This document shows, in pieces, positions 3,199-59,781 of a stretch of DNA of 64,000 bases. Position 1 is the stretch's first letter. Each line of letters begins with the position of its first letter. The stretch spans positions 433,183 through 497,182 of the forward strand of contig CAWHCN010000011.1 in the NCBI GenBank assembly GCA_963827935.1, read 5' to 3'. This stretch comes from an uncultured Planctomycetota bacterium. Its GTDB lineage: Bacteria > Planctomycetota > Planctomycetia > Gemmatales > Gemmataceae. The position numbers and the translations under genes were made by a program. Under the pieces are notes generated by a model. The model ran no database searches and was not told where the DNA came from. It saw only the letters and a program-made list of their open reading frames with translations.

Positions 3199-3762
3199 TT
3201 CTTCCTTGCAAATAGCTTGTCAAAATAGGCTTTTTCTTGAGCATCTTGAAGAATGGCGTCTTTGTCCTTCAATCGGCCAACCGCCTCAATCAGATGCTCA
3301 AAGGGAATGGCAGTTGACGTACCTTTATGGTAGTTTTTCTCCCATTCCTCGAAGTGAGTTTCCCGAGCGATGTCAAAGTCGTCTTGTCCAAGACGCGCGG
3401 CCGACACCTCGTTCAGCAAGCTGACTTCCTGGCGGGATAGGGCGGAAGGGCTGAGGTCAGTAACAAGACTAATGAGATAGTCTTCATTCTGGAAATGGCG
3501 GGACCATTCAGCTTGGTCCGAGTGAGAAGCCCTTTATGAGATCGTATACCTCGCTGTGAATTGGACCGTAGTCCATCGCGCACAAGCGACCGCCGACAAT
3601 TGGCCGACCCCTCCTCTTGAGACTTTCGCGGTCCGCAATGTAAAGAAGGGCCAATAGCCGTTTCCGGCCCATGATTCGATGGGGGGCGAGCCGCAACAGT
3701 GTTGCCGCTGCTTCAATCGCCTTTCGCGTGTCGATGCGGAAAATCATGGCGGTGCTCCTCAA
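3195..3762 (-). CDS. Panacea-domain (DUF4065) antitoxin-like protein PanA, apparent +/-1 frameshift near 3515
   Basis: N-terminal frame: KRLLALLYIADRESLKRRGRPIVGGRLCAMDYGPIHSEVYDLIKG matches the Panacea/SocA/GepA core (KLqKLLYfa....g.pl...f.AwahGPV.pevY). The C-terminal frame continues SHSDQAEWSRHFQNEDYLISLVTDLSPSALSRQEVSLLNEV.... The two frames overlap at 3511-3533. Confidence 0.55.
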
Positions 3763-10546: not shown

Positions 10547-10762
10547 CTGGGTGGCACGCCCTGAGGTACTCCGAAGGGCGTGCTTTACTGGCAGGCTTGC
10601 TTGTTAGCCCGACGCGCTAGCGAGGGTGGGCGAGTCGTTCCCTCGCTGGCGCGTCGGGCTAACATGCACGCCCTTCGGAGTACCTCAGGGCGTGCCACCC
10701 GCCGAAGGGCGTGTTGCAGTGCATGCACGCGCTTCGGAGTACCTCAGGGCGTGCCACCCGCC
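10547..10762. repeat. palindromic intergenic repeat cluster: family A (GGTGGCACGCCCTGAGGTACTCCGAAGGGCGTGC), one forward and two reverse copies, plus one family C hairpin (CCAGCGAGGG...)
   Basis: The same 35-bp unit recurs at 35169-35303, 44722-44803, 58775-58903 and 59700-59781. Copies form long inverted pairs. Confidence 0.8.
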
Positions 10763-15338: not shown

Positions 15339-15544
15339 TCGTGGCCGGACCGGTCGGCCTGCCTCAGCGGGCGGAGCCAGCCCGATGCCCGGCCACACCC
15401 AGGTCGGCGGACCAGAAGCCATCCGGGCAGGCCACCGGCTGACGCGAGCCGCTGCGGTTGGCGGGCGGCAGCTGCAGATCGCTGAACGGGTCCATGATGT
15501 TGCCTCCGCTGGAATTCAGATGTCCGGAAGAGTGGGTGCTATGA

Positions 15545-15690
15545 CGGTGCCACGACAGTGCCACGATGGTGCCACCACCCTGCCACGATGGTGCCGCCAC
15601 GGTGCCACGATGGTGCCAGAGGGTGCCATCAGGGTGCCACGATGGTGCCATCAGGGTGCCATAATGGTGCCACGGGGTGTCCAAGAGTGG
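15545..15690. repeat. degenerate ~12-bp tandem repeat (GTGCCACGATGG)n, about 11 units
   Basis: tgccacgacagtgccacgatggtgccaccaccctgccacgatggtgccgccacggtgccacgatggtgccagagggtgccatcagggtgccacgatggtgccatcagggtgccataatggtgccacgg. It lies intergenically between hemB and the O-methyltransferase. Confidence 0.75.
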
Positions 15691-15825
15691 TGGTGGCACC
15701 CTGGACTGACGGGCCTGGACCCTTCCTTATATCGACTCCCGGGGTAGGCCAGGCCAGCAACCATCCATACGTATGCGAGCGCGGCGTCATTATTTGCGAA
15801 CGCTGTCCAACAGGGGAAGACCATC

Positions 15826-16858
15826 ATGTCATCCGCCGCTTCGCCGCCTGATCCCACCCCGGTGCTGGACCTGCTCGAAGCATTCCGCCGCTCCAAGGCG
15901 ATGTTCGCCGCCCTTGACCTGGGGGTGTTCGATCAACTGGCGGGCGGCGGGCTCTCACTGTCGGCCCTCGCGCAGCATCTGCACGCCGACGCCGGTGCCC
16001 TGGGCCGGCTGCTGGATGCCTGCGTCGGCCTGGGTCTGCTGGCGCGGCAAGCGGATGGCTACGCCAACACCCCGGCGGCGGCGGCCTATCTCACCACGTC
16101 CAGTCCGCTGCGGCTGACGGGCTATGCCCGCTATTCCGACGCCGTCCTCTGGCAGCTCTGGGCTCACCTGGCCGATGCCGTGCGCGAGGGGACCCACCGC
16201 TGGAAGCAGGGCTTTGGCCTGGAAGGGCCGATCTTCGACCACTTCTTCCGCAACGACACCGATCGCCGCGAGTTCCTGATGGGGATGCACGGCCTGGGCC
16301 AGATCAGCTCGCCGGCGGTGGTGGCAGCGTTCGACCTGTCGGCGTACCGCTGCCTGGCGGACCTGGGGGGAGCGACGGGCCACCTGGCCGTCGCCGCCTG
16401 CCGGCGTTACCCAAACCTGCGGGCCGTGGTCCTGGACCTGCCCGGCGTCTTGCCGCTGGCCCGCGAACTGACGACTGAGGCAGGAATGGGCGGCCGGATC
16501 GACATCGTCAGCGGCGATTTCTTCGCGGACCCGCTCCCCGGGGCCGACCTCTTCGCCCTGGGCCGCATCCTGCACGATTGGTCGGAGGACAAGGTCCGGC
16601 AGTTGTTGCGCACGGTGTACGACAGCCTGCCGCCGCGCAGCGCACTGCTAGTGGCAGAGAAGCTGCTCGATGACGATCGCACCGGTCCGTCCGTAGCCCT
16701 GTTCCAGTCCTTGAACATGCTGGTGTGTACCGAGGGGAAGGAGCGCCACCTTCGGCGAATACGAAGCTCTGCTGCGCGAGGCCGGCTTCGCCCGGGTGGA
16801 GGGGCGACGGACCAGCGCCCCACTCGACGCGGTGCTGGCGGTCAAGGGCGGCTCCTGA
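15826..16858 (+). CDS. class I SAM-dependent O-methyltransferase (family 2), 1-bp insertion frameshift near 16752
   Basis: Dimerisation domain plus LADLGGATGHLAVAACRRYP (SAM motif) plus DLFALGRILHDWSEDK. After ...VCTEGKER the protein continues in the +1 frame as TFGEYEALLREAGFARVEG...AVKGGS*. Confidence 0.8.
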
Positions 16859-33475: not shown

Positions 33476-33691
33476 ACCTTACCCTCCCTCCGGGGACAGG
33501 ACTTGGGGCGCGGAGGCGGTTGTTGACGAGACTGGTGAGCCCCATGATGGGCGCCCAGGGGCATGGCGTCAACACCTTTCCCCAAGTGCCGAAGCGGCAA
33601 AGCCGCACCGCGGACGCGGCGCGTGCGGCCTGTGCCGTGCGGGGCAGACAAATCGCATCGCAAACCGTCGCGGTGAGGATCTGGCAGCCCG

Positions 33692-33768
33692 AAGCGCCAG
33701 CGAGGGTCTGGGCTGGATCCCTCGCTGGCGCTTTGGGCTGCCCGGCGACCAGGCCGGCGCTGTTTCCC
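33692..33768. repeat. family C palindromic repeat (CCAGCGAGGG-n-CCCTCGCTGG)
   Basis: Copies also at 10596-10662, 55441-55482 and 56434-56495. Confidence 0.6.
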
Positions 33769-35168: not shown

Positions 35169-35303
35169 GCAGGGTGGCACGCCCTGAGGTACTCCGAAGG
35201 GCGTGCTGCACTGATAGCACGCCCTTCGGAGTACCTCAGGGTGTGCCACCCAGATTGTTGGACCGTCAGCACTCCTTTCGGAGTACCTCAGGGCGTGCCA
35301 GCC
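35169..35303. repeat. family A palindromic repeat cluster (one forward, one reverse and one partial copy)
   Basis: gggtggcacgccctgaggtactccgaagggcgtgc ... gcacgcccttcggagtacctcagggtgtgccaccc ... ctttcggagtacctcagggcgtgcc. Confidence 0.8.
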
Positions 35304-36598
35304 CCCTGACGCTTTAGCAATGTCGCCAGCAACCGGCGATCGCAAGGGTCGATCGCCTGGTCCCAGGGATGCGAGGCCTCGCCCAGCGGGGTCTCGATCA
35401 GGTCGCCGGGATGGGGGCTTGGCTCGGGAGATATGGCGTCGGTCGCCTGGCGAAGCCACGGGGGCAAGTCGTCCAGCCGCAGCGTCGAGCCAGCGTCCGC
35501 TGCACCCAGGGCCTGTCGCAAGACGGCCTCCAGTTGGCGGGTATTGCCCTCCCAGGGCTGCCGTTGCAAGGCCTCTACCACGCCGGGCTCGAATGGCCGC
35601 GCCGGCCGGTAACGGCCGGTCTGCAGGGTGTCGAGGACATGCTGGGCCTGCCGGGCGATGTCTTCCGGCCGGCCGCGCAGCGAGGGCAGCGGGATGCGGA
35701 ACAGGCCCAGGCAGGCGGCCAGGTCCGGATCGAACACCCCATCCAGGACCTGCTGGCGCAGGGCGCCCTCGGTCGCCGCCAGGATGCGCACCTCCGGCGG
35801 CCGCCGTTGTGCCGTCCGCTGCAAGATGGCTTGCAGCGGTGTGTCCAGGCTGGCGATGTGGTCCAGAAAGAGTGTCCCGCCGCTGGCCGCCCGCAGGAGA
35901 TCCTGCCAGCGGTCCGTTTGCGGACCGGGGCTTAGGATCCGCTTCATGGCACGGCAATCCAGGGCGAAATAGGGCATGCGGATGGCGGTCGGGTCGAGGT
36001 AAAGGATGGCCGAGGCCAGCCGTCGCCGCGGCGTCCCCGCTTCGCCCTCGATGAGCACCGGCAAGTCGTGGAAGCGGTTGGCGCGGACGGCGCGGCGGAA
36101 GACGTTGTGCATGGCCGCGCTGGCGCCGACCAGGTTGTAGGGTCGGAACAGGCCGGCCCGGGCCTGGTCCTCGCGCAGCCGGCGGCGCAGCGCTCGCCCC
36201 AGCTCGGCCACCTGGTGACAGAGGGTATCGCCGCGCCTTGGGCCAGTGGCGAGGAATCCGCGGGCCCCGGCAGCCAGCGCCCGTTGTCGGACTGCCTCCG
36301 GAACGGCCCCCGAGTCGGCGTAGAGGTAGACGGCGATGCGGCGGCCCCGCTCCCGCAGGAAGGCCAGCAGGGGCTCCACGCCGGCCCCGGCGGGCAGCGG
36401 CAGGACCGCGGCCGCCGGCGCCCGGCGCCGACACTCCGCGACGGCGGCTGCGAGGTCGCCGGGCGGGAGCACTTCCACTTCGCGGGGCGCGAACGCAGCC
36501 GACGCCCCGGCGCAGGCCGGGCGGGGCTGCAAACAGCAGCGGCGTGTCCATGCGTGGGGATCCGTAACAGGGATGGTGGGCTCAGGGGACCAACCCAA
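35288..36598 (-). CDS. sigma-54-interaction (AAA+) domain regulator with a degenerate Walker A and a receiver-like N-terminus
   Basis: LVGASAAMHNVFRRAV...LPVLIEGEAGTPRRRLASAI (GEAGT instead of GESGTGKE), GTLFLDHIASL, RILAATEGAL, C-terminal CDRRLLATLLKRQGAG (Fis-like). The start codon is uncertain and the N-terminus overlaps the repeat. Confidence 0.55.
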   Translation of the reverse strand: MGWSPEPTIPVTDPHAWTRRCCLQPRPACAGASAAFAPREVEVLPPGDLAAAVAECRRRAPAAAVLPLPAGAGVEPLLAFLRERGRRIAVYLYADSGAVPEAVRQRALAAGARGFLATGPRRGDTLCHQVAELGRALRRRLREDQARAGLFRPYNLVGASAAMHNVFRRAVRANRFHDLPVLIEGEAGTPRRRLASAILYLDPTAIRMPYFALDCRAMKRILSPGPQTDRWQDLLRAASGGTLFLDHIASLDTPLQAILQRTAQRRPPEVRILAATEGALRQQVLDGVFDPDLAACLGLFRIPLPSLRGRPEDIARQAQHVLDTLQTGRYRPARPFEPGVVEALQRQPWEGNTRQLEAVLRQALGAADAGSTLRLDDLPPWLRQATDAISPEPSPHPGDLIETPLGEASHPWDQAIDPCDRRLLATLLKRQGAGTP

Positions 36599-39432: not shown

Positions 39433-39524
39433 GGCGAATATCCCTCAGCGGCGAGCGGGGAGGCGTAAGCCCCCCGGTGACGCGAAAAACCGGGGGGCTA
39501 ACGCCCCCCGCTCGCCGGTTGCTT

Positions 39525-40264: not shown

Positions 40265-40327
40265 GGCGAGCGGGGGGCGTCAGCCCCCCGGTGATCTCAC
40301 CGGGGGGCTGACGCCCCCCGCTCGCCT
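40265..40327. promoter_or_regulatory. 28-bp perfect palindrome (family B) in the divergent Hpt / NtrC-like intergenic region
   Basis: gagcggggggcgtcagccccccggtga tc tcaccggggggctgacgccccccgctc lies between the Hpt start (40243) and the regulator start (40378). Confidence 0.5.
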
Positions 40328-42688: not shown

Positions 42689-44683
42689 TCAGGCCACGGC
42701 CACGGGCAGGCTGGCAATGATCTGGCCCATGAGCTGTCGGGCATAGGCGTCCAGCTCGGCGGGAGCCGCGGTGACCAGGCCGGGGGCGAACTCGGCGGTT
42801 TCGCAGGTGTCGAGTAAGGCCGCAAGGGAGCGTGCCAGTCCAGAAGCCACGCCGCCCTGGCGCAGTGCGGCCTCGGCATCGCGCGAGGTCACCTCGCCGG
42901 TTGTCGTCAGAAAGTGGCGCCGCAGAAAGTCCTGAAGCGACTGGCGCACGCGGGCATAAGTCGGCGGCGGGGGCAGCGGCCCCGGACGGACCACAGGGAT
43001 CGCCACGGGCAGCGGCTCAGGAGGCGCGATGGGTGGGCGGCGCGATCGGCGCCATCGGCCCGCGACCCAGAGCATCGCACAGGTCATCAGGACCGCGGCC
43101 ATCGCCAGTTCTACCCACAGCATCACGCCGGCGGACCCGGAGTCGGACTCCGGGATCGCCTCCTCGATAGGCGGCGGAGGCGGCGCGGCGGCAGCGGGGG
43201 CCGGCGCCGGCGGCGGTGTGGCAGGCGTCAGATTGGGGGCCGGGGTCACCCGCAGGGGGATCGGTTCGCTCCGCGTGGTGGCGAAGTGCTTGGCCTGCGG
43301 ATCGAAGTAGCTGACCGGCACGGGCGGGATTTCGGTCACCTGCTCGTTGAGCGGCCGCAGGGTGTAGGTGAACTCGCGGGCCTTCTCGCCGGCCGAGTGC
43401 GCTTCGCCAGCGCGGACGCGGAAGCGCTGGGCAAACTCGGGCCGCGCCGCCAGGTCCGGGCCGCCCGCCGCAATCACCGACCCATTGCCCTCCAGGCGAA
43501 CCGTCAGCGTGAACGGCGTTCCGGCGGCCATCTCGGTGGCGCTGGCCTGGGCCGTGACGCGGACGTTGCCGACCACCCCGGTGAAATCGGCCGGCCTGCC
43601 GGCCTGGCGGCGCAGGTCCAGCACGGAGAACGTCAAAGGCGCACTGGCCGCGACAAACGGCTGCCACCGCCCCTTCCTGGCGTCCAGGGCCACGTACACC
43701 TCGCCGGCGGCGTGGGCCGGACCAAGGGTCACCTCGCCTCCCTCACGGAGGCGCAGCGGGATAGCCAGGCGGCGGCGGTAGCGGGCTGGGTCGAGGTCCG
43801 CCGCGCCGGCCGGCTCGTGCTCCAGCTTCACCTCCCCGGCGAAACCGTTCACCCGGAACCCGTGCTTGCCCGGCTCGATGGCGTTCGCCTGGACGAACTG
43901 CTCCAGCGGTTGTGCCAGCTCGAGCTGCGGCAAGCCGTCCAGCGCCGGCAGCGTCAGCGACATCTTGCTGAGCGGCAGGTAGGGATAGGTCTTGCCGCCA
44001 TAGACCACCTGGCCGCGCTCGATCAGCAGATCGAGGTACAACTTGACTTCCTCACCCACCTGCGGCGTCGCGTTGGACAGCGACAGCCCGACGCGAACCC
44101 ACGGTTGGGCCCGCGCCTCGGTCACCGTGATCGACAGCGGCTGGGTGGTAAGCGCCTGGCCACGCGTCGTGACGGTGAAGGCCGGGATCGCGAGCGGTCC
44201 CGGGCGCTGGGGAGTCACCAGATAGGTGAAGGAGTAATCGTTGGTGGTCAGTCCGGCGATGGCCTGGGCCGCCTGCATCTGACCGCGCAGCAGACTCGGG
44301 TCCCCGAGCAGCTGGGCCAGATCGGGATCGAGCTTGGCCGGGTCGGGCATTTGCCCCAGGCCGCGCAGGGCATTGACGAGGTGTTGCCCCCGCCCGGCGT
44401 GGAAGACGCCCTGGGCTTCCAGGTCGGCCGCCAGGGTTGGTACCACGGCCGGCGGACCCACGGCGGTCAGCGGCACGCCGGCAACCACCGGTGGCTTCAC
44501 CGTGGGCGCCTCCTCGGCACCACGCACGCGGACAGTCAGCAACACCGGTTGACCGACCTGAGCCTCCTTGCGATCGGCCTGCACCGTCACCCGCGGTGGT
44601 GCGGCCAAGGCCGGCGCAACCACCCAAAGCAGCGCAAGCAGGACGATGGTCGAGCGACTGAGGGGAGAACGGTGGCCGATCAT
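42689..44683 (-). CDS. batD: BatD-family protein (aerotolerance operon), signal peptide plus C-terminal TM
   Basis: Signal MIGHRSPLSRSTIVLLALLWVVAPALA. Long beta-rich extracellular region, Pro-rich linker, TM (VMLWVELAMAAVLMTCAMLWVAG) and a cytoplasmic tail, as in BatD. The ORF's N-terminal extension is read-through of a family A repeat. Confidence 0.65.
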   Translation of the reverse strand: MIGHRSPLSRSTIVLLALLWVVAPALAAPPRVTVQADRKEAQVGQPVLLTVRVRGAEEAPTVKPPVVAGVPLTAVGPPAVVPTLAADLEAQGVFHAGRGQHLVNALRGLGQMPDPAKLDPDLAQLLGDPSLLRGQMQAAQAIAGLTTNDYSFTYLVTPQRPGPLAIPAFTVTTRGQALTTQPLSITVTEARAQPWVRVGLSLSNATPQVGEEVKLYLDLLIERGQVVYGGKTYPYLPLSKMSLTLPALDGLPQLELAQPLEQFVQANAIEPGKHGFRVNGFAGEVKLEHEPAGAADLDPARYRRRLAIPLRLREGGEVTLGPAHAAGEVYVALDARKGRWQPFVAASAPLTFSVLDLRRQAGRPADFTGVVGNVRVTAQASATEMAAGTPFTLTVRLEGNGSVIAAGGPDLAARPEFAQRFRVRAGEAHSAGEKAREFTYTLRPLNEQVTEIPPVPVSYFDPQAKHFATTRSEPIPLRVTPAPNLTPATPPPAPAPAAAAPPPPPIEEAIPESDSGSAGVMLWVELAMAAVLMTCAMLWVAGRWRRSRRPPIAPPEPLPVAIPVVRPGPLPPPPTYARVRQSLQDFLRRHFLTTTGEVTSRDAEAALRQGGVASGLARSLAALLDTCETAEFAPGLVTAAPAELDAYARQLMGQIIASLPVAVA

Positions 44684-44721
44684 GGGGTCCTCGTCTACTG
44701 CGACTGCGCAGTCAAGGCTTC

Positions 44722-44803
44722 CGGGTGGCACGCCCTGAGGTAATCCGAAGGGCGTGCTACACTGACTGCACGCCCTTCGGATTACCTCAGGGCGTGCCAC
44801 CCT
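44722..44803. repeat. family A palindromic repeat pair (variant TAATCC)
   Basis: gggtggcacgccctgaggtaatccgaagggcgtgc tacactgact gcacgcccttcggattacctcagggcgtgccaccc. Confidence 0.8.
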
Positions 44804-46299: not shown

Positions 46300-46512
46300 G
46301 TTCCTTTCCTCTTAGCAGCTTGCGACGGTGCAACGGCGCAGCTGATTCGTTGCATCCTTGCAGTGCAAGCTTGCAACGATGCAACGGTGCAGCTGATTCG
46401 TTGCATCGTTGCATGCATTGCATGAATTGCACTGCAATGCATGCATTGCAGTGCAATGCAGGGCTGATGGGATGGCTGCAACGGTGCAACGATGCAATGC
46501 CATCCATCTCCT
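46300..46512. repeat. TGCA-rich repetitive intergenic element inside the Bat operon (49-bp direct repeat plus reiterated TTGCA/TGCAA palindromic words)
   Basis: gcaacggtgcagctgattcgttgcatc occurs twice, then ttgcatgcattgcatgaattgcactgcaatgcatgcattgcagtgcaatgcagg. It is AT-richer than the genome. Confidence 0.7.
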
Positions 46513-49054: not shown

Positions 49055-49801
49055 ATGCGTATCATTCCGGTGCTCGACCTCAAGAACGGCGTCGTAGTAC
49101 GCGGTGTGGGGGGACGTTGAGACGAGTATCGGCCCGTCGTCAGCCGGCTCACGTCCTCACCCGACCCAATGGCCGTGGCCCGCGCCTTCCGCGATCACCT
49201 GGGCCTGGTCGAACTCTACCTCGCCGACCTCGACGCGATCGCCGGGGCCCGGCCGGCCACGGCGCTGTATGCGGAGCTGGTTGCCGCGGGGACCGTCCTC
49301 TGGGTGGACGCCGGAATCCGCTACTGCACCGAACTGCCCCAGGTGGCAGCGACCGGCGTGCAGCGGATCGTGGTCGGCCTGGAGACCATTCTCGGCCCCC
49401 AGGAACTGGCCCTCTGTTCTTGCGAACTGGGCGAGCGGCTCGTCTTCTCGCTCGACTTGAAAGAGGGCCGGCCCCTAGGCGCTCCCTGCTTCTGGGAGAG
49501 TTCAGACGTTCTCGGCATCGCCGCTGAGGCCATCGACCTCGGCGTCCGGCGAATCCTGGTGCTCGACCTGGCCCGGGTGGGCGAACGGCAAGGGACCGGG
49601 ACCGAGGAGTTGTGCGCCGCCCTGGCCGCGCGACATGGCGGTGTGGAGCTGGTCGCCGGTGGAGGCATTCGGGGGCTGGACGATCTGCGGCGGCTGCAGG
49701 CCTGCGGCGTTTGCGCCGCCCTGGTGGCGTCGGCCTTGCACGATGGCTCGCTAACACGCTCCGACCTGGATCAGCTACGGCCGCCACTCGACGGTCGCTG
49801 A
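49055..49801 (+). CDS. HisA/HisF-family TIM-barrel protein with an in-frame TGA at 49118-49120
   Basis: MRIIPVLDLKNGVVVRGVGGR-TGA-DEYRPVVSRLTSSPDPMAVARAFRDHLGLVELYLADLDAI...VDAG...GGGIRGLDDLRRL. The same frame runs before and after the stop. Confidence 0.6.
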
Positions 49802-49804
49802 TTG

Positions 49805-50482
49805 CCCAATCTCGTTCCCAAACTCCGTTTGGGAACGCCGGAGCGAAACTCTGTTTCGCGTCCGCAGATTGGAGCCGCTTACGTCAGCGCCAGTCCGTGA
49901 TCACATCGATCAGGCCCAGAACGCCTGCATAATTGCGCGCTGGAACAGCGCCAATGCACGGGATCGTCAACATATCCGCGCTTTACCGGGTTATAATGAG
50001 CATATTCCAGTTTCTGGATCATCATCTCGTCGTCCTTGATCTGCTTGGGTTTGCTGCCCTCCTCCCAGACCTGGTAATCACTGTTTGTCTTGTGCCGTAG
50101 CTTGAGCGCGCGAAGTTGCTTCAGAAGAACCGTGGCCCCACGAGCCTCCAGCAGATCGACGATCTGACGCGCGGTGTACATCTTGAAGCTCTTGATGACG
50201 CTCGAGATGTCCGGCGCCGATGCGATAAGGTGCAGATGATTCTCGAGGATGACGTAGCCATACAGGCGAAAGTCCTTTTCCTTCCTCAAGAAGTTCCACG
50301 AGTCGAACACGATTTGAACGGCTTCAGGCCGCGTGAATACAGCGAGCCAGCCGACGATCGTACAGGTCAAGAAGTAGGGGTATTCGTTCTCGTAAAATCG
50401 GTAGCGAGTGCGGGTCATGGGAAGCCTCGCAAACGCGAAACGGAGTTTCGCGGGGTGCGTTCCCAAACGGAGTTTGGGAACG
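49805..50482. mobile_element. REP-RAYT-REP unit (REPtron-like): IS200-like tyrosine transposase flanked by inverted palindromic REP pairs, with 58-bp direct repeats outside
   Basis: Left end: gttcccaaactccgtttgggaacgc...gagcgaaactctgtttcgcg. Right end: cgcgaaacggagtttcgcg...gcgttcccaaacggagtttgggaacg. The flanks 49742-49800 and 50487-50545 are identical except for 1 mismatch. Confidence 0.7.
49879..50418 (-). CDS. REP-associated tyrosine transposase (RAYT, IS200/IS605 Y1 family)
   Basis: MTRTRYRFYENEYPYFLTCTIVGW...RLYGYVILENHLHLIASAPDISSVIKSFKMYTARQI has the HxH motif and the catalytic Tyr. Confidence 0.8.
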   Translation of the reverse strand: MTRTRYRFYENEYPYFLTCTIVGWLAVFTRPEAVQIVFDSWNFLRKEKDFRLYGYVILENHLHLIASAPDISSVIKSFKMYTARQIVDLLEARGATVLLKQLRALKLRHKTNSDYQVWEEGSKPKQIKDDEMMIQKLEYAHYNPVKRGYVDDPVHWRCSSAQLCRRSGPDRCDHGLALT

Positions 50483-50516
50483 AGGTGAGGGGCTAACACG
50501 CTCCGACCTGGATCAG

Positions 50517-51005
50517 CTATGGCCGCCACTCGACGGTCGCTGATTGCCCGATATTCTCTTCCACTTCAACGCGCAGCACCTCGGGAACGAACTGATGGTG
50601 CTTGCGCAGGTCCTCCAGCAGCCGCTGGGCGATGTAGCGGGCCAACAACTCGGCGGTGGTGTTCTCGATGGGCAGCAGGACGCAATCGTCCCGCGGAAAG
50701 AGCCACTGCCGGTCGCGATAGCGAACGCTGACGCCGCGCGCACCTTCCTCCAGGACGATGTGCGGATTGCGAGTGGCCAGCATCATGCGATGGTCCAGCT
50801 CATCGGTGATGGCCTTGGTGCGGTGCTTGAGGGCGATGAAGTCGAAGACGTACTGGTTTTTGTCGAGGGGACCCTCAATCTCGACCGCGGCGCGGTAGTT
50901 GTGGCCGTGCAGCCGTTCGCAACGGTCGCCCTCATAGCTGATGAAGTGCCCGCTACAGAACACCAGGTGGTCCTTCGTGACTCGGACCTTGAAGCGCTCG
51001 GACAT
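50517..51005 (-). CDS. queD: 6-carboxytetrahydropterin synthase QueD / 6-pyruvoyl-tetrahydropterin synthase family
   Basis: CSGHFISYEGDRCERLHGHNY carries the CxxxHGH zinc motif. Confidence 0.75.
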   Translation of the reverse strand: MSERFKVRVTKDHLVFCSGHFISYEGDRCERLHGHNYRAAVEIEGPLDKNQYVFDFIALKHRTKAITDELDHRMMLATRNPHIVLEEGARGVSVRYRDRQWLFPRDDCVLLPIENTTAELLARYIAQRLLEDLRKHHQFVPEVLRVEVEENIGQSATVEWRP

Positions 51006-51223
51006 GGGAAGCTGGGTCGGGATGACGGTTTCGCAACTCACGGGGTCTATCTTACGAATCCAGGGTGAAGAGGTCGAATGGGGGGTGACCGGATCGCGTT
51101 ACCCGGATTGGCCATTTCGCCAGTCTTGGCCACCGCCTGCGGCAAGAGCTCTTTAGAGAAACTCGAATAAAGTTCGCGCCGCCGCGTGCCGATGGACAGA
51201 AGAGTCGATACTCTCGGCCCATC

Positions 51224-52099: not shown

Positions 52100-52161
52100 G
52101 GCGAGCGGGGGGCGTAAGCCCCCCGATTGAACAATCAGGGCGATTACGCCCCCGGCTCGCC
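52100..52161. terminator. family B palindromic hairpin between convergent genes
   Basis: ggcgagcggggggcgtaagccccccg...cgattacgcccccggctcgcc. Confidence 0.5.
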
Positions 52162-55406: not shown

Positions 55407-55476
55407 GGCGTGGAGGCAACTCCAGCGCGGAGCCCGTGGCGTCAGCGAGGGCGCTCCGCCGAAACCCTCGCTGACG

Positions 55477-56094
55477 CTACGGGCTCTGACTCGTGGGATT
55501 GTTGCCCAGGTAAAAGCGACCGACTCGCTCCTCAAACCACACCATGCGTGGGTCGTCCAAAGCCGCCACCGTCTGCCATTCGGTTCGGACCGGATCGAGG
55601 TCCAGTTGGCCCTGGTTGCCGGCCAGCAGGTTCTCGATGTCCACCTGATCTTGAAGGCGAAAGGCCAGCAGTTTCATAAGGATGAGCCCTTCCGCGGTAG
55701 CGACGAGGACCGGGTGACCGAACCAGTCCTCAAGAAATGCCTGGTCAAGCACGTGTTGATACGCGAGTAGCGCCGGCTTGAGCCAATCGATCCGGACACC
55801 GTGGAACGACATCACCGTCATGCTCTCGCGGGTCCATTCGCGGATGGCGACATCCGTCTCAAATGCAAAACCGCGGGCGCGCAACTCATCCAGCAGCCCC
55901 GGCAAGGTGATCTGCGGAACCTGGAGCAATAGGTCCACATCCTCGGTAAACCGGGGTCGGCCACGATAGGCCGCGGCTAACCCGCCGATCAGGGCATACT
56001 TGATCCGTCGCGCATCCAGCGCTTCCGTCAGTTGCCGCACGCCGTCGAGCAGGTATTCCGGGAACTCAACAGTTTCAGGTTCCATGACGCGCAA
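55477..56094 (-). CDS. Pol-beta-superfamily nucleotidyltransferase-like protein
   Basis: IKYALIGGLAAAYRGRPRFTEDVDLLLQVP is a GG/S-x(n)-DxD nucleotidyltransferase-type motif. Confidence 0.45.
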   Translation of the reverse strand: MRVMEPETVEFPEYLLDGVRQLTEALDARRIKYALIGGLAAAYRGRPRFTEDVDLLLQVPQITLPGLLDELRARGFAFETDVAIREWTRESMTVMSFHGVRIDWLKPALLAYQHVLDQAFLEDWFGHPVLVATAEGLILMKLLAFRLQDQVDIENLLAGNQGQLDLDPVRTEWQTVAALDDPRMVWFEERVGRFYLGNNPTSQSP

Positions 56095-56308: not shown

Positions 56309-56681
56309 GCGATTTCTCCGACAAGCGAGCACCTGCGCGAGTCATCGTGATTATATCGCCGCGGCCTGTGCCTTGCGAGCGTCTTCGGCTATCCCCCCCG
56401 GTTCGCGATTCAGCCGTCGCCAGAGCCAAATCGGGCAGCCCGACGCGCCAGCGAGGGATTCCGGCCAAACCCTCGCTGGCGCGTCAGGCTGCCCGGACCG
56501 GCCGCTGGTGGGGCAATTGCAGTGCCGTCCGTGAATGTAACCGAACCCCGCCCGGCAGTACCTTGTGGTTGTGGCATAATCGCTCCTACGGTAACATCAA
56601 CCAGTGAACACCCGACCGGGCGCGGGGCAGTCGGCCCTGGCCCGGCATCCTTTCCCCGAGGAATGCGAGGCTTCTGGACCA

Positions 56682-58780
56682 TGCCGCGAACGCACGCTTC
56701 CCGTCAAATCACTGTCGCTCCTCCTGGTCGGCCTGGCCGGCCTGTTTCTGATGCCGGCACCCACGCCGGCCGAACCACACATCGGCAAGCAGGACCCTGC
56801 CGTCGCCAAGCTGGTCTGCGAGTTCCTCCACGGCGGGCCACCTCAACCGCCCGGAAATCGGCGACGAGATGTCCAAACGCCTCTTCCGCCGCTTCCTCAA
56901 GGGCCTCGATCCCACCAAGCTCTATTTCCCAAGAGCGACATCGACGAGTTCAAGAAGCACGAAACCGACCTCGACGATCAGCTCCTCAGGCCGGCGACTC
57001 AGCTTCGCCTACAAGGTTTACGAGCGTTTCATCGACGCGCGTCGCCGAACGCCAGAAGCTGATCGAGGAACTGGTCGAGGCCAAGCACGATTTCACCGTC
57101 GAAGGAAAGCCTGGACACCGAATCACGACGCGATGCGACTACGCCGAGCAACGAGGCCGAGGTCCACGAGCGCTGGCGGAAGCGGATCAAGTTCGACCTG
57201 CTGGTGCAGCGCATGGCCGAGAAGCCGATGCCCGAGGCCGAGGCCAAGAAGAAGATCCTGACCCGCTACCAGAGCGTCCTCAAGCGCTGGAAGCAGGTGG
57301 ACAACTCCGATCTCCTGGAACTCTATCTCGCCGACCTGGCCACCAGCGTCGATCCGCATTCGACCTACATGTCGCCGACCACGCTGGACGATTTCGAGAT
57401 CGCCATGCGCCTGAACCTGGACGGCATCGGGGCGGTGCTGCGGCAGGAGAACGGCCAGACCATCATCGTGGAAGTCGTGCCCGGCGGCGCGGCGGCCAAG
57501 GACGGCCGGCTCAAGCCCAAGGACAAGATCGTCGGCGTGGCCCAGGGCGACGACAAGTTTGTCGACGTGATCGACATGAGGCTGCGCGACGTGGTCAAGC
57601 TGATTCGCGGGCCGCGCGGCACCAAGGTGCAATTGAAGGTCGTCCCGGCCAGGCAAGGTCGACCGCGTCGTCTACGACCTGACCCGCCAGAAGATCGAGC
57701 TGAAGTCGCAGGAGGCCCGCGGCGAGATCGTCGAGCAGGGCAAGAAAGCCGACGGCAAGCCGTACCGGATCGGCGTCATCGACCTGCCGTCCTTCTACGC
57801 CGAAATCGACCCCGGCGGCGACGGCAAGCCGGACGCCAAGAGCGCCACCGAGGACGTCCGCAAGATCCTCAAGGAGTTCGATGCCAAGGGGGGCGTGGAC
57901 GGCGTGGTGCTCGACCTGCGCCGCAACGGCGGCGGCTTGCTGACGAAGCCCTGCGCCCTGACCGGGCTGTTCATCGACCAGGGGCCGGTCGTCCAGGTGA
58001 AGAGACGCCGCAGGGCCGGGTCGCACCATCAGGACGACCCGGACAAGGGGATCGTCTACGGCGGGCCGCTCGTGGTGCTAGTCAGCCGATTCAGCGCCAG
58101 CGCGTCGGAAATCCTGGCCGGCGCGCTTGCAGGACTACGGCCGGGCCCTGATCGTCGGCGACTAGCACCACCTACGGCAAGGGGACGGTGCAGACGATCA
58201 TCGACCTGGGCATCGAGGCTTCGGACCAGAACCCGCGCCAAGCTGGGCGCCCTGAAGCTCACCATCCAGCAGTTCTATCGCCTCAACGGCGACAGCACGC
58301 AGGATCGCGGCGTGCTGTCCGACGTCGTCCTGCCGTCGCTGACCGAGTACATCACCAGCGGCGAGAAGGAGCAGGAGTTTGCCCTGGCCTTCGACAAGGT
58401 CAACCCGGTGGAGCACGAGGAGTTGGGGCTGGTGCCGGCCGACCTGAAGGCGGTCCTCAAGGAGCGTTCCGCCAAGCGCGTCAAGGACTCCGCCGATTTT
58501 ACCAAACTGGCCAAGGACATCGAGCATCTTCAAGGCACGCAAGGCGAAGAAGAAGCTGCCGCTCAATGAGAAGGAGCTGCGCGAGCAGACCAAGAAGGAC
58601 GATGCCGACAAGCTGGAGCAGAAGATCAACGATCTGGCCCCGCCCGAGGCTCCGTCAGGCGATGCTACCTTCAAGTTCAAGCACAACTACATGAACGACG
58701 AGGTCCTGCGGATCATGGAGGACTTCATCCAGGGCAAACGGCTGGTGGCGGGCGCTGAGGCGGCAGCTGTCATTGGGGTG
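56682..58780 (+). pseudogene. prc: tail-specific (C-terminal processing) protease Prc/S41A-like, split over at least 7 frame changes
   Basis: Signal peptide and fragments across three frames: DIDEFKKHETDLDDQLL, SFAYKVYERFIDARR, LIEELVEAKHDFTVEGKPGHRITTRCDYAEQ, LLVQRMAEKPMPEAEAKKKILTRYQSVLKRW...IAMRLNLDGIGAVLRQENGQTIIVEVVPGGAAAKDG (PDZ), GVVLDLRRNGGG...VVLVSRFSASASEILAGAL (S41 catalytic Ser region), LGALKLTIQQFYRLNGDSTQ. The 3' end merges into a family A repeat. Confidence 0.65.
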
Positions 58781-58903
58781 GCACGCCCTGAGGTACTCCG
58801 AAGGGCGTGCTGCCTCATGAACACGCCCTTCGGAGTACCTCAGGGCGTGCTGCCTCATGAACACGCCCTTCGGAGTACCTCAGGGCGTGCCACCCTGCAT
58901 TTC
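58775..58903. repeat. family A palindromic repeat cluster (one forward and two reverse copies with identical spacers TGCCTCATGAAC)
   Basis: ggggtggcacgccctgaggtactccgaagggcgtgctgcctcatgaacacgcccttcggagtacctcagggcgtgctgcctcatgaacacgcccttcggagtacctcagggcgtgccaccc. Confidence 0.8.
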
Positions 58904-59235
58904 GGCGGCGACGCAAGTCCAGGTTCAGGTTCAGGTTACTACGATCCATCCTCCCGCTCACCCACTCCCCCGATTTTTTCCCGATTTTTTCCTTGACATT
59001 CCCCCCCGAGACATTACCATCGCCCTATCTCAACGGCCTCTTCTCTGTTCCGGCCCCGCTGTTCGACGTGCTTGCACGGAGTTCAGCGGGGTTTTTTCAT
59101 GCGCCCGTGTCCTGTCTCGACTTGAGCAAAAAGCCGCGCCTCAATTCCCAGGGTCCCCCGAGCCGATGGAACGATCGACACGGCTTGCCGGAACTCCCGG
59201 CAGCCACTCCGTCCGCGCCCGGGGAGGCTTAACGC

Positions 59236-59715
59236 ATGAACGCCAATGGGAACCGTCAGTACCGTCCGCAACTTGAATTGCTGGAAGACCGGTTCCTTCT
59301 GAGCGGCTATCGCCGGATCGTCCTGCTGCCTGCGCCGCAGATTCATCCCATCGTGCCGGCCACGCGCGGGACGGGCACACCAGCGGATATCCACACCATC
59401 GTCAACCCGGCCAACGTCGTCACGAGCTCCGTTTCCATCGTGCCCCAGCACATCAGCCTGGGCTTATTCGACCAGCCGACCCCAATCACGATCAGCGGCG
59501 TCGATCCAGGATTGACCACGCCGGGCCTGCCCGTGGTGACAAACTTTGCCAGCGATCCGGGCCTGACGATGCCGGGTTTGCCCATCTACTGCGCCGTCAC
59601 AGCCTGTGATGCCCCCTCCCTTGCAGGTAGGCGGACTCACGCTTTCGCCCGAGGGCATCATCAGCGGCAGCTTCCCGTAAGGGCCCTCAAATCAAAGATG
59701 GGTGGCACGCTCTGA
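59236..59715 (+). CDS. small secreted hypothetical protein with a Gemmata-type N-terminal LEDR motif
   Basis: MNANGNRQYRPQLELLEDRFLLSG..., then Pro/Gly/Thr-rich repeats (GVDPGLTTPGLPVV / ASDPGLTMPGLPIY). Confidence 0.5.
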   Translation: MNANGNRQYRPQLELLEDRFLLSGYRRIVLLPAPQIHPIVPATRGTGTPADIHTIVNPANVVTSSVSIVPQHISLGLFDQPTPITISGVDPGLTTPGLPVVTNFASDPGLTMPGLPIYCAVTACDAPSLAGRRTHAFARGHHQRQLPVRALKSKMGGTL

Positions 59716-59781
59716 GGTACTCCGAAGGGCGTGCAGTTAGTGCAGCACGCCCTTAGGAGTACCTCAGAGCGTGCCACCCGA
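59700..59781. repeat. family A palindromic repeat pair (variant)
   Basis: gggtggcacgctctgaggtactccgaagggcgtgcagttagtgcagcacgcccttaggagtacctcagagcgtgccaccc. Confidence 0.8.

Follow-up and report, generated by a model that had tools for sequence, protein, structure and literature searches.

The 64,000-nt stretch of contig CAWHCN010000011.1 that we analyzed (the window), from an uncultured bacterium of the Gemmataceae, carries 13 copies of a 34-nt hairpin-forming unit, designated here as family A. We consider it very probable that family A is a repetitive extragenic palindrome (REP) family whose doublets form REPINs, that is, a non-autonomous, hairpin-forming mobile element on which a REP-associated tyrosine transposase (RAYT), an HUH/Y1 enzyme, acts in trans. 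Judging from related genomes, its partner would be a clade of 198-aa RAYTs that is widespread in Planctomycetota, and a member of that clade should sit elsewhere in the genome from which the window comes.

A first-pass annotation had proposed an inverted repeat family at five loci. Searching with the unit gave 13 matches with 0-3 mismatches, on both strands, at exactly those loci, and the coordinates proposed for them were off by no more than a few bases. The matches begin at 10550, 10666, 10725, 35173, 35217, 35269, 44724, 44768, 58777, 58821, 58861, 59701 and 59745. By chance no match would be expected (mean of 0.00 in 100 dinucleotide-preserving shuffles), and a Hamming scan of the window allowing ≤9 mismatches returned the same 13 copies and added none. 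The unit had been taken to be 35 bp long; it was recovered as such, except that position 35 is variable across family-A units, so the conserved unit ends at nt 34. Its layout is GG-GTGG-CACGCCCT-GA-GG-TACT-CC-GA-AGGGCGTG, which folds as an unpaired 5′ GG-GTGG foot followed by an 8-bp GC-rich stem (CACGCCCT/AGGGCGTG), above which are a symmetric 2x2 GA/GA internal loop, a 2-bp GG/CC apical stem and a TACT tetraloop. A single unit folds at -21.5 kcal/mol as RNA (z -4.2) and at -10.6 kcal/mol as single-stranded DNA (ssDNA; z -3.6). GGTGG is retained in 125-133 of 135 family-A units, and eight of the 13 copies in the window differ from the consensus at one position at most. The published description of REPs (PMC6006769) places a GTAG or GTGG sequence 0-2 nt 5′ of a GC-rich basal stem of 7-20 bp in which every base is paired; a bulge and a second stem are optional, and the total length is 20-65 nt. 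In foot position, basal stem and length, the family-A unit is a REP by this structural definition. The dispersed, mainly intergenic distribution of REPs is found as well, with 13 units at five loci in 64 kb, all at gene boundaries, as the first pass had also described; at this density of one locus per 12.8 kb, a whole genome would be extrapolated to hold several hundred units. Searching the whole 64-kb window against Rfam 15 gave no match at gathering score.

The units are organized as inverted pairs. At every one of the five loci a forward unit is followed by a reverse unit, and three loci have an extra reverse unit. Across 63 sources, among them the window, the loci from a genome scan and RAYT loci described below, all 47 family-A doublets are head-out (foot outward) and none is head-in, with spacers that are mostly 7-19 nt and in one case 1 nt. 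The window doublets have a 12-nt spacer and form an element of ~80 nt that folds into one long hairpin with a 35-37 bp stem; as RNA they fold at -80 to -85 kcal/mol, and in the ssDNA calculation at -48 to -52 kcal/mol (z -12.7 to -15.9). Family-A head-out doublets are REPINs in the sense of Bertels and Rainey (PMC3116915). The window holds the following copies.

10549..10700: REPIN 1, forward unit 10549-10582 and reverse unit 10667-10700, both identical to the consensus
about 10591-10663: unrelated family B palindrome, 73 nt, nested in and splitting the spacer of REPIN 1 (C-TTTACTG ... AT-G)
10701..10759: 5′-truncated second REPIN of locus 1, comprising the last 12 nt of a forward unit, CCGAAGGGCGTG (10702-10713), the spacer TTGCAGTGCAT and the reverse unit 10726-10759 (1 mismatch)
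Locus 1 context: 5′ of an acyl-CoA dehydrogenase gene on the minus strand
35172..35251, plus strand: REPIN 2, forward unit 35172-35205, spacer CTGCACTGATAG, reverse unit 35218-35251 (1 mismatch)
35270..35303, minus strand: lone diverged reverse unit of locus 2 with 3 mismatches, holding the stop codon (35288-35290) of the minus-strand open reading frame (ORF) 35288-36598
44723..44802, plus strand: REPIN 3, forward unit 44723-44756, spacer CTACACTGACTG, reverse unit 44769-44802
58776..58895, plus strand: REPIN 4, forward unit 58776-58809, spacer CTGCCTCATGAA, reverse unit present twice (starts at ~58821 and ~58861)
Locus 4 context: directly 3′ of a prc-like tail-specific protease gene
59700..59779, minus strand: REPIN 5, forward unit starting at ~59701, reverse unit starting at ~59745, spacer CAGTTAGTGCAG
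Locus 5 context: between two hypothetical plus-strand genes, with the stop codon of ORF 59236-59715 (plus strand) in the forward unit

The extra reverse units had been interpreted as a forward-reverse-reverse architecture common to three loci. The units are indeed present, but the three loci share no design and the "triplets" have three unrelated origins. At locus 4 a 40-nt tandem repeat without any mismatch (Tandem Repeats Finder: 58802-58890, 2.2 copies, 100% match) has doubled the reverse unit; since the duplication is bounded by AGGGCGTGC, which is found in both arms, slippage is the likely cause. At locus 1 the 24-nt gap between the reverse units contains CCGAAGGGCGTG and the family-type spacer TTGCAGTGCAT, so the third unit derives from a second REPIN, whose forward arm is missing its first 22 nt. 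The third unit of locus 2 is a diverged lone unit. We also note that the family B palindrome of locus 1 is nested precisely in the loop of REPIN 1, between the ...ACTG and AT... of the spacer, and that the 82-nt insert of this REPIN folds on its own (ssDNA -35.6 kcal/mol, z -8.0). Family B itself has the form AGCCCGACGCGCCAGCGAGGG, about 13 nt, CCCTCGCTGGCGCGTCGGGCT and occurs four times in the window (10591-10663, 33686-33739, 55431-55485 and 56437-56490).

Two features of the doublets bear on whether the pair moves as a whole. The spacers of the window REPINs are alike (CTGCACTGATAG, CTACACTGACTG, the reverse complement of CAGTTAGTGCAG and the split spacer of locus 1), with a mean similarity score of 0.32 compared with -0.19 +/- 0.08 for shuffled spacers, a value that none of 200 shuffles reached. 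The outer bases of the REPIN 2 spacer are the position 35 bases of either arm, and its hairpin folds as ssDNA at -50.6 kcal/mol (z -15.9). Because the spacer is asymmetric, each window REPIN has an orientation, and because CAGTTAGTGCAG is the reverse complement of the family spacer, REPIN 5 is inverted relative to the others. The metagenome-assembled genome (MAG) CAVVFU has a different spacer of 18 nt, which is again alike within that MAG (0.56 compared with -0.17 shuffled, 0 of 200 as high); between genomes, family-A spacers are unrelated. The arms also carry mirrored substitutions. In REPIN 3 an apical-loop C>A occurs in both arms (GGTAATCC / GGATTACC), in REPIN 5 a C>T at unit position 12 does so, and with these two of the five window REPINs counts the REPIN at genome-scan locus L020, which has its own mirrored T>A. 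Outside position 35 there are six mirrored substitutions, where by a rough estimate ~0.5 would be expected from independent hits (~10x). Single-hairpin "double-foot" forms (GGGTGG...CCACCC, e.g. L043) and lone units occur too, L043, L009 and 35270-35303 of the window being examples of one or the other. The orphan foot motif GGTGGCAC was found ≤60 nt from a full unit in nine cases (e.g. L037 and L056), too few for an interpretation as excision scars. No target-site duplication was seen at the five window loci, and no direct repeats flank the 47 listed doublets. A comparison of filled and empty sites, setting the REPIN beside a response-regulator-like gene at L002 against the window at ~18040, gave no clean empty site, since the far flank of L002 is not homologous to the window there.

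The link between family A and a transposase comes entirely from genomes other than that of the window. A scan of one genome per species with the exact 22-nt core pattern returned at least 62 loci (numbered L), mostly in Planctomycetota MAGs; because loci were picked by the exact core, its conservation among them is inflated. Many of the source assemblies are long-read MAGs with frameshift-type errors, and their taxon labels are those of the depositors. One related MAG, CAVVSQ, carries at least 33 separate 8-kb family-A loci among the matches listed, and is among these matches the closest to the window, with ~70% DNA identity in shared genes. In six loci (L054, L039, L061, L053, L063 and L064), inverted family-A units bracket a gene of ~600 nt; in several loci the two units are ~670 nt apart. 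Its product is a 198-aa RAYT. Three products, from L054 and L039, were scored against NCBIfam NF047646, "REP-associated tyrosine transposase", and reach 85-92 bits (cut-off 80), with 85.5 for L054 and 92 for L039; the sole PDB match of the RAYT is E. coli TnpAREP (4ER8). The HUH histidines H73/H75, the WQ pair W130 and Q131, and the catalytic Y152 (in YIHANP) are invariant in 18 homologues. A protein database contains 5520 homologues at E ≤1e-20, and among the best 120 of these nearly all are ~198 aa. In CAVVSQ, one RAYT (L061) was seen among the at least 33 loci, and it is broken into three reading frames. In contrast to the genome scan, a set of 80 metagenomic loci anchored on the RAYT is free of the 22-nt-core selection bias. 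With flanking units counted at ≤2 mismatches, a unit precedes the start codon of RAYTs that are ≥69% identical to the reference at 23 of 32 loci, in most of them by 52-64 nt, and an inverted unit follows the stop codon at 20 of 31, in most of them by ~20 nt. For RAYTs of 51-67% identity the counts fall to 3/40 upstream and 1/37 downstream, with the foot 8-mer GGTGGCAC still present in about half and a different apical part. One RAYT, P0065, has the same locus with a unit on both sides in all 21 contigs that carry it.

The flanking REPs are also the most conserved part of these loci. In 14 independent loci they are 97% and 95% identical, compared with 75% for the RAYT coding sequence, 33-39% for the linkers and 22-26% for the outer flanks, so the REP is the most constrained part of the RAYT locus. 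In a neighbor-joining tree, apical variants of the REP group with RAYT clades; the variants seen near RAYTs include GGTACTCC, GGTCCTCC, a +T bulge form, GAGGAACGA and others. The +T form has an extra base in the 5′ stem strand (GGCACGTCCCTGAGG) and occurs at L011, L042, L049, L053 and L055, in MAGs labelled Pirellulaceae, Bythopirellula and Anatilimnocola, as well as beside a subset of metagenomic RAYT clades; it appears to be a lineage-specific variant. By their sequences, family-A units and this RAYT pass the REPIN-RAYT linkage test in other genomes. The first-pass description of a REP- or BIME-like (bacterial interspersed mosaic element) dispersed family is therefore borne out, both by published REP and REPIN structure and by a cognate RAYT that is bracketed by the units elsewhere.

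Two questions of distribution were also considered. The genome scan matched MAGs labelled Alcaligenaceae, Acidobacteriaceae, Terriglobia, Bryobacterales and Hydrogenedentales, which would imply spread across phyla. In the contigs that we checked, the repeat and RAYT of L039 (Alcaligenaceae MAG CAZQXG01) stand next to an N_methyl + DUF1559 gene and the repeat of L062 (Acidobacteriaceae MAG CAVUQE01) next to a PSCyt2/PSD1 (DUF1549/DUF1553) gene. Such neighbors are typical of planctomycetes and make mis-binning the simpler reading, so we set cross-phylum spread aside and regard both contigs as probably mis-binned. Carriage by phages was rejected as well, with one match in 2.9 million viral contigs.

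The window does encode a RAYT of its own, and the first pass had suggested that family A might be associated with it. The ORF 49879-50418 scores 95 bits on NF047646. However, it is 23% identical to the family-A RAYT, has no family-A unit within 5 kb and is bracketed by different inverted double hairpins (GTTCCCAAAC..GTTTGGGAAC and GCGAAAC..GTTTCGC) that are found nowhere else in the window, which excludes it as the partner. The element around it (49750-50552) has a GC content of 55%, compared with 66% for the window. Outside its hairpins lies a 61-nt direct repeat (49750-49810 / 50492-50552, 97% identical) made of the overlapping 3′ ends of two convergent genes, 49169-49801 (plus strand) and 50517-51041 (minus strand), and the duplication leaves both ORFs intact. 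A 61-bp duplication is unexpected as the product of a Y1 transposase.

For family A we propose a mechanism that takes E. coli TnpAREP and the IS608 paradigm as its template (PMC6006769). The 34-nt unit would serve as a recognition module in single-stranded DNA, made of the unpaired GG-GTGG foot and the GC-rich hairpin. The unit that is copied would be the REPIN, two head-out units and a spacer of ~12 nt, which corresponds to the arrangement that brackets the RAYT minus the gene; by analogy, the gene-less doublet may be an internal-deletion derivative of a RAYT with its flanks. On DNA that is transiently single-stranded, the RAYT may bind the folded hairpin through its foot and basal stem and cleave next to it, and the excised hairpin might then be rejoined at other extragenic DNA without a target-site duplication.

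All five REPIN loci lie at gene boundaries, three abutting the 3′ ends of genes and two on the 5′ side (acyl-CoA dehydrogenase and BatD), and the hairpins intrude on gene calls in the ways that the first pass had noted. Spurious ORF ends arise from the repeat, for example ARPEVLRRAC peptides. Of two proposed false N-terminal extensions, that of the BatD-like ORF 42689-44800 (minus strand) holds, with 39 codons derived from REPIN 3; the true start is probably MIGHRS..., followed by a signal-peptide-like stretch. The other does not. The ORF 35288-36598, a sigma-54-activator-like regulator, is on the minus strand, so the unit covers its stop and last codons (...RQGAGTP*) and not its N-terminus. 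At locus 4, the prc-like gene (56522-58996) is split over three or four frames (56522-57682, 57204-58151, 57895-58569 and 58691-58996), the last of which runs straight through REPIN 4; the gene is either a pseudogene or affected by frameshift errors typical of long-read assemblies. A family-A REPIN occupies the equivalent site (3313-3393) after the orthologous prc-like gene of L020, the two genes being ~72% identical in DNA, and synteny with the window stops at the REPIN. The shared site reflects either one long-persisting insertion or independent insertions at the same gene end.

This context raises the question of whether the copies are hairpins selected by the host, acting as terminators, stabilizers of mRNA 3′ ends or sites for nucleoid- or gyrase-type proteins, roles of the kind described for E. 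coli REPs (PMC6006769). The position of the loci relative to genes, the recurrence of a REPIN after the prc-like gene and the conservation of REP arms, far above that of neutral flanks and even above that of RAYT coding sequence, all speak for such a role. Yet two of the loci lie 5′ of genes. Moreover, none of the copies is followed by a T/U tract, and a terminator scan found 0 sites at loci 2, 4 and 5; on these last two grounds we reject an intrinsic (Rho-independent) terminator. A generic hairpin would also fail to account for an identical 34-mer, an invariant foot and linkage to a RAYT in dozens of genomes. We think host selection rather unlikely as the explanation of family A, and it may also hold alongside the REPIN reading. 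Two labels raised in the first pass concern the type of element. It rightly excluded a CRISPR array, as the units are inverted, there are at most three per locus and the spacers are 8-24 nt except at the interrupted locus 1. The likeness to a miniature inverted-repeat transposable element (MITE) stands loosely, for a non-autonomous element. A classical MITE, the deletion derivative of an insertion sequence (IS) with a DDE transposase and terminal inverted repeats, would share the inverted termini, the small size and a full-length form with a gene between the arms, but the doublets lack target-site duplications, the enclosed gene encodes an HUH/Y1 enzyme, and the arms each form a hairpin of their own with an unpaired foot, as is characteristic of substrates for single-strand transposition. 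We give this explanation almost no credence.

Other observations weigh against the REPIN-RAYT reading itself. Transposition, cleavage and excision by the family-A RAYT are all proposed by analogy. The basal stem is near-invariant, with a double compensatory change at one pair in three variant sequences only, and the +T variants misalign in the stem check, so covariation support for the hairpin is thin. The window score for spacer conservation comes from 4-5 doublets. In the best-sampled relative, the MAG CAVVSQ (L002-L061), the 30 doublets have arms with 0-2 mismatches and spacers of 7-16 nt that are near-random (-0.17 compared with -0.24 shuffled), a poor fit to simple copying of a whole doublet. 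These unrelated spacers between near-perfect arms, together with the lone units and double-foot hairpins, would suit a model in which the single 34-nt REP is mobile and a new unit lands ~12 nt from an existing one, inverted. That model is difficult to square with the window and CAVVFU spacers, which are conserved in sequence and length and in both orientations, or with the excess of mirrored substitutions; published REPINs, moreover, likewise have poorly conserved spacers (PMC3116915). We regard it as quite improbable. Finally, tblastn found no family-A RAYT in the 64-kb window. The window copies could then be relics, decaying or drifting after the RAYT was lost or inactivated in the lineage, as the truncated and duplicated copies and the three-frame L061 gene, the only family-A RAYT seen in CAVVSQ, might suggest. 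Errors in long-read assembly may instead account for the L061 frameshifts, 64 kb are too little to demonstrate that a gene is absent from a genome, and the many window units at 0-1 mismatch with spacers that are still related point to recent copying or active maintenance. We judge decay of this kind unlikely, and a REPIN family served by a RAYT in trans remains our preferred reading.

Family A shares its main features with well-studied systems. Like E. coli REPs and BIMEs, it combines an imperfect, GC-rich palindrome with an adjacent 5′ GT[AG]G foot and is extragenic, multi-copy and arranged in inverted pairs; as with TnpAREP (RayT/YafM; 4ER8), inverted REPs stand on both sides of the RAYT gene (a "REPtron"), which encodes HUH, WQ/WE and YIxxNP motifs. 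It differs from them in that the foot is GTGG preceded by GG rather than GTAG, the sequence is unrelated, and both an IHF site and the conserved BIME linker motifs (L, S, l, r) are missing. The 198-aa family-A RAYT matches TnpAREP marginally (E 1.8e-4), within the two catalytic motifs, and its hosts are Planctomycetota. In organization, family A has a parallel in the REPINs of Pseudomonas fluorescens SBW25 (GI-GIII, Group 3 RAYTs), where the doublet behaves as the replicative unit and the RAYT is single-copy (PMC3116915). Both have inverted REP doublets forming a long hairpin, spacers less conserved than the arms, compensatory or mirrored arm changes and a RAYT flanked by the same REPs. The family-A element is shorter, ~80 nt with a 12-nt spacer compared with 71 bp between the invariant 16-mers of the arms, and unlike the species-specific SBW25 REPs its REP is nearly unchanged across many species-level genomes and several families.

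Among the TnpAY1 subclasses of Quentin et al. 2018 (PMC6006769), family A resembles the REPs of 2.4, 2.5 and 2.7 in its long hairpins, bulge or internal loop, GT[AG]G foot and double-foot forms, and by comparison of listed motifs the (D/E)HVH, WQ and YIHANP of its RAYT fall between those given for 2.5 and 2.7. It does not match class 3, where that study mainly lists Planctomycetes (Y motif ending in Q, atypical hairpins). With the ends of IS200/IS605 elements (IS608, ISDra2) it shares subterminal hairpins, a 5′ guide tetranucleotide, an HUH/Y1 enzyme and the lack of target duplication; those elements are autonomous and multi-copy with asymmetric ends, whereas family-A ends are symmetric, the gene is apparently single-copy and the gene-less form multiplies. 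At class level, REPs of the GTAG type are on record for the PVC superphylum (PMC3733652), and a search of the literature that was available found no description of family A or its RAYT clade. Taken together, family A is an element of an expected kind, mildly unusual in how little the REP changes across many species-level genomes.

Several other repeats were seen in the window. At 15543-15680 (and 15689-15699) an 11-nt unit (GGTGCCACGAT and variants) recurs ~13 times in tandem, with a periodicity of one helical turn, adjoining the upstream side of the gene that starts at 15826, with an inverted GGTGGCACC after the array. Its GTGCCAC box is complementary to the foot and first stem bases of the REP, a likeness that may be a coincidence or may mark a protein-binding array. 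A repeat survey found a third GC-rich palindrome family (GGCGAGCGGGGGGCGTCAGCCCCCCGGTG...CACCGGGGGGCTGACGCCCCCCGCTCGCC) at 39489-39516, 40265-40326 and 52100-52161. In an apparent intergenic region, 46317-46421, a 46-nt unit (AGCTTGCGACGGTGCAACGGCGCAGCTGATTCGTTGCATCCTTGCA) containing the inverted motifs TGCAACG / CGTTGCA is repeated at 51-nt spacing with 91% identity.

The practical consequence of family A concerns annotation. Its 80-nt hairpins corrupt gene calls through false N-terminal extensions, stops inside repeats and REP-derived peptides, and probably also break short-read assemblies; contigs with a cognate RAYT are for the most part no longer than 1-2 kb. Planctomycete genomes would be better annotated if the family were masked. 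In evolutionary terms, a near-invariant REP spans genomes labelled Gemmataceae, Planctomycetaceae and Pirellulaceae, and the foot and basal stem are mostly recognizable at ~51% RAYT protein identity. We tentatively raise the possibility, which we hold to be less likely than its converse, that Planctomycetia have a native lineage of REPIN-associated RAYTs, which would be the third major one and separate from the proteobacterial systems of Group 2 and Group 3. If so, and if inheritance has been vertical, the REP-RAYT recognition code would be far more constrained than the picture of species-specific REPs allows; repeated horizontal spread would instead contradict a purely vertical inheritance of REPIN-RAYT systems. 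To our knowledge, such systems have been studied almost entirely in Gammaproteobacteria. With RAYT homologues in the thousands and REP variants that follow the clades of the RAYT, Planctomycetota would offer a well-sampled and independent test bed for the co-evolution of a domesticated transposase with a hairpin population, and for how strictly the two are inherited vertically.

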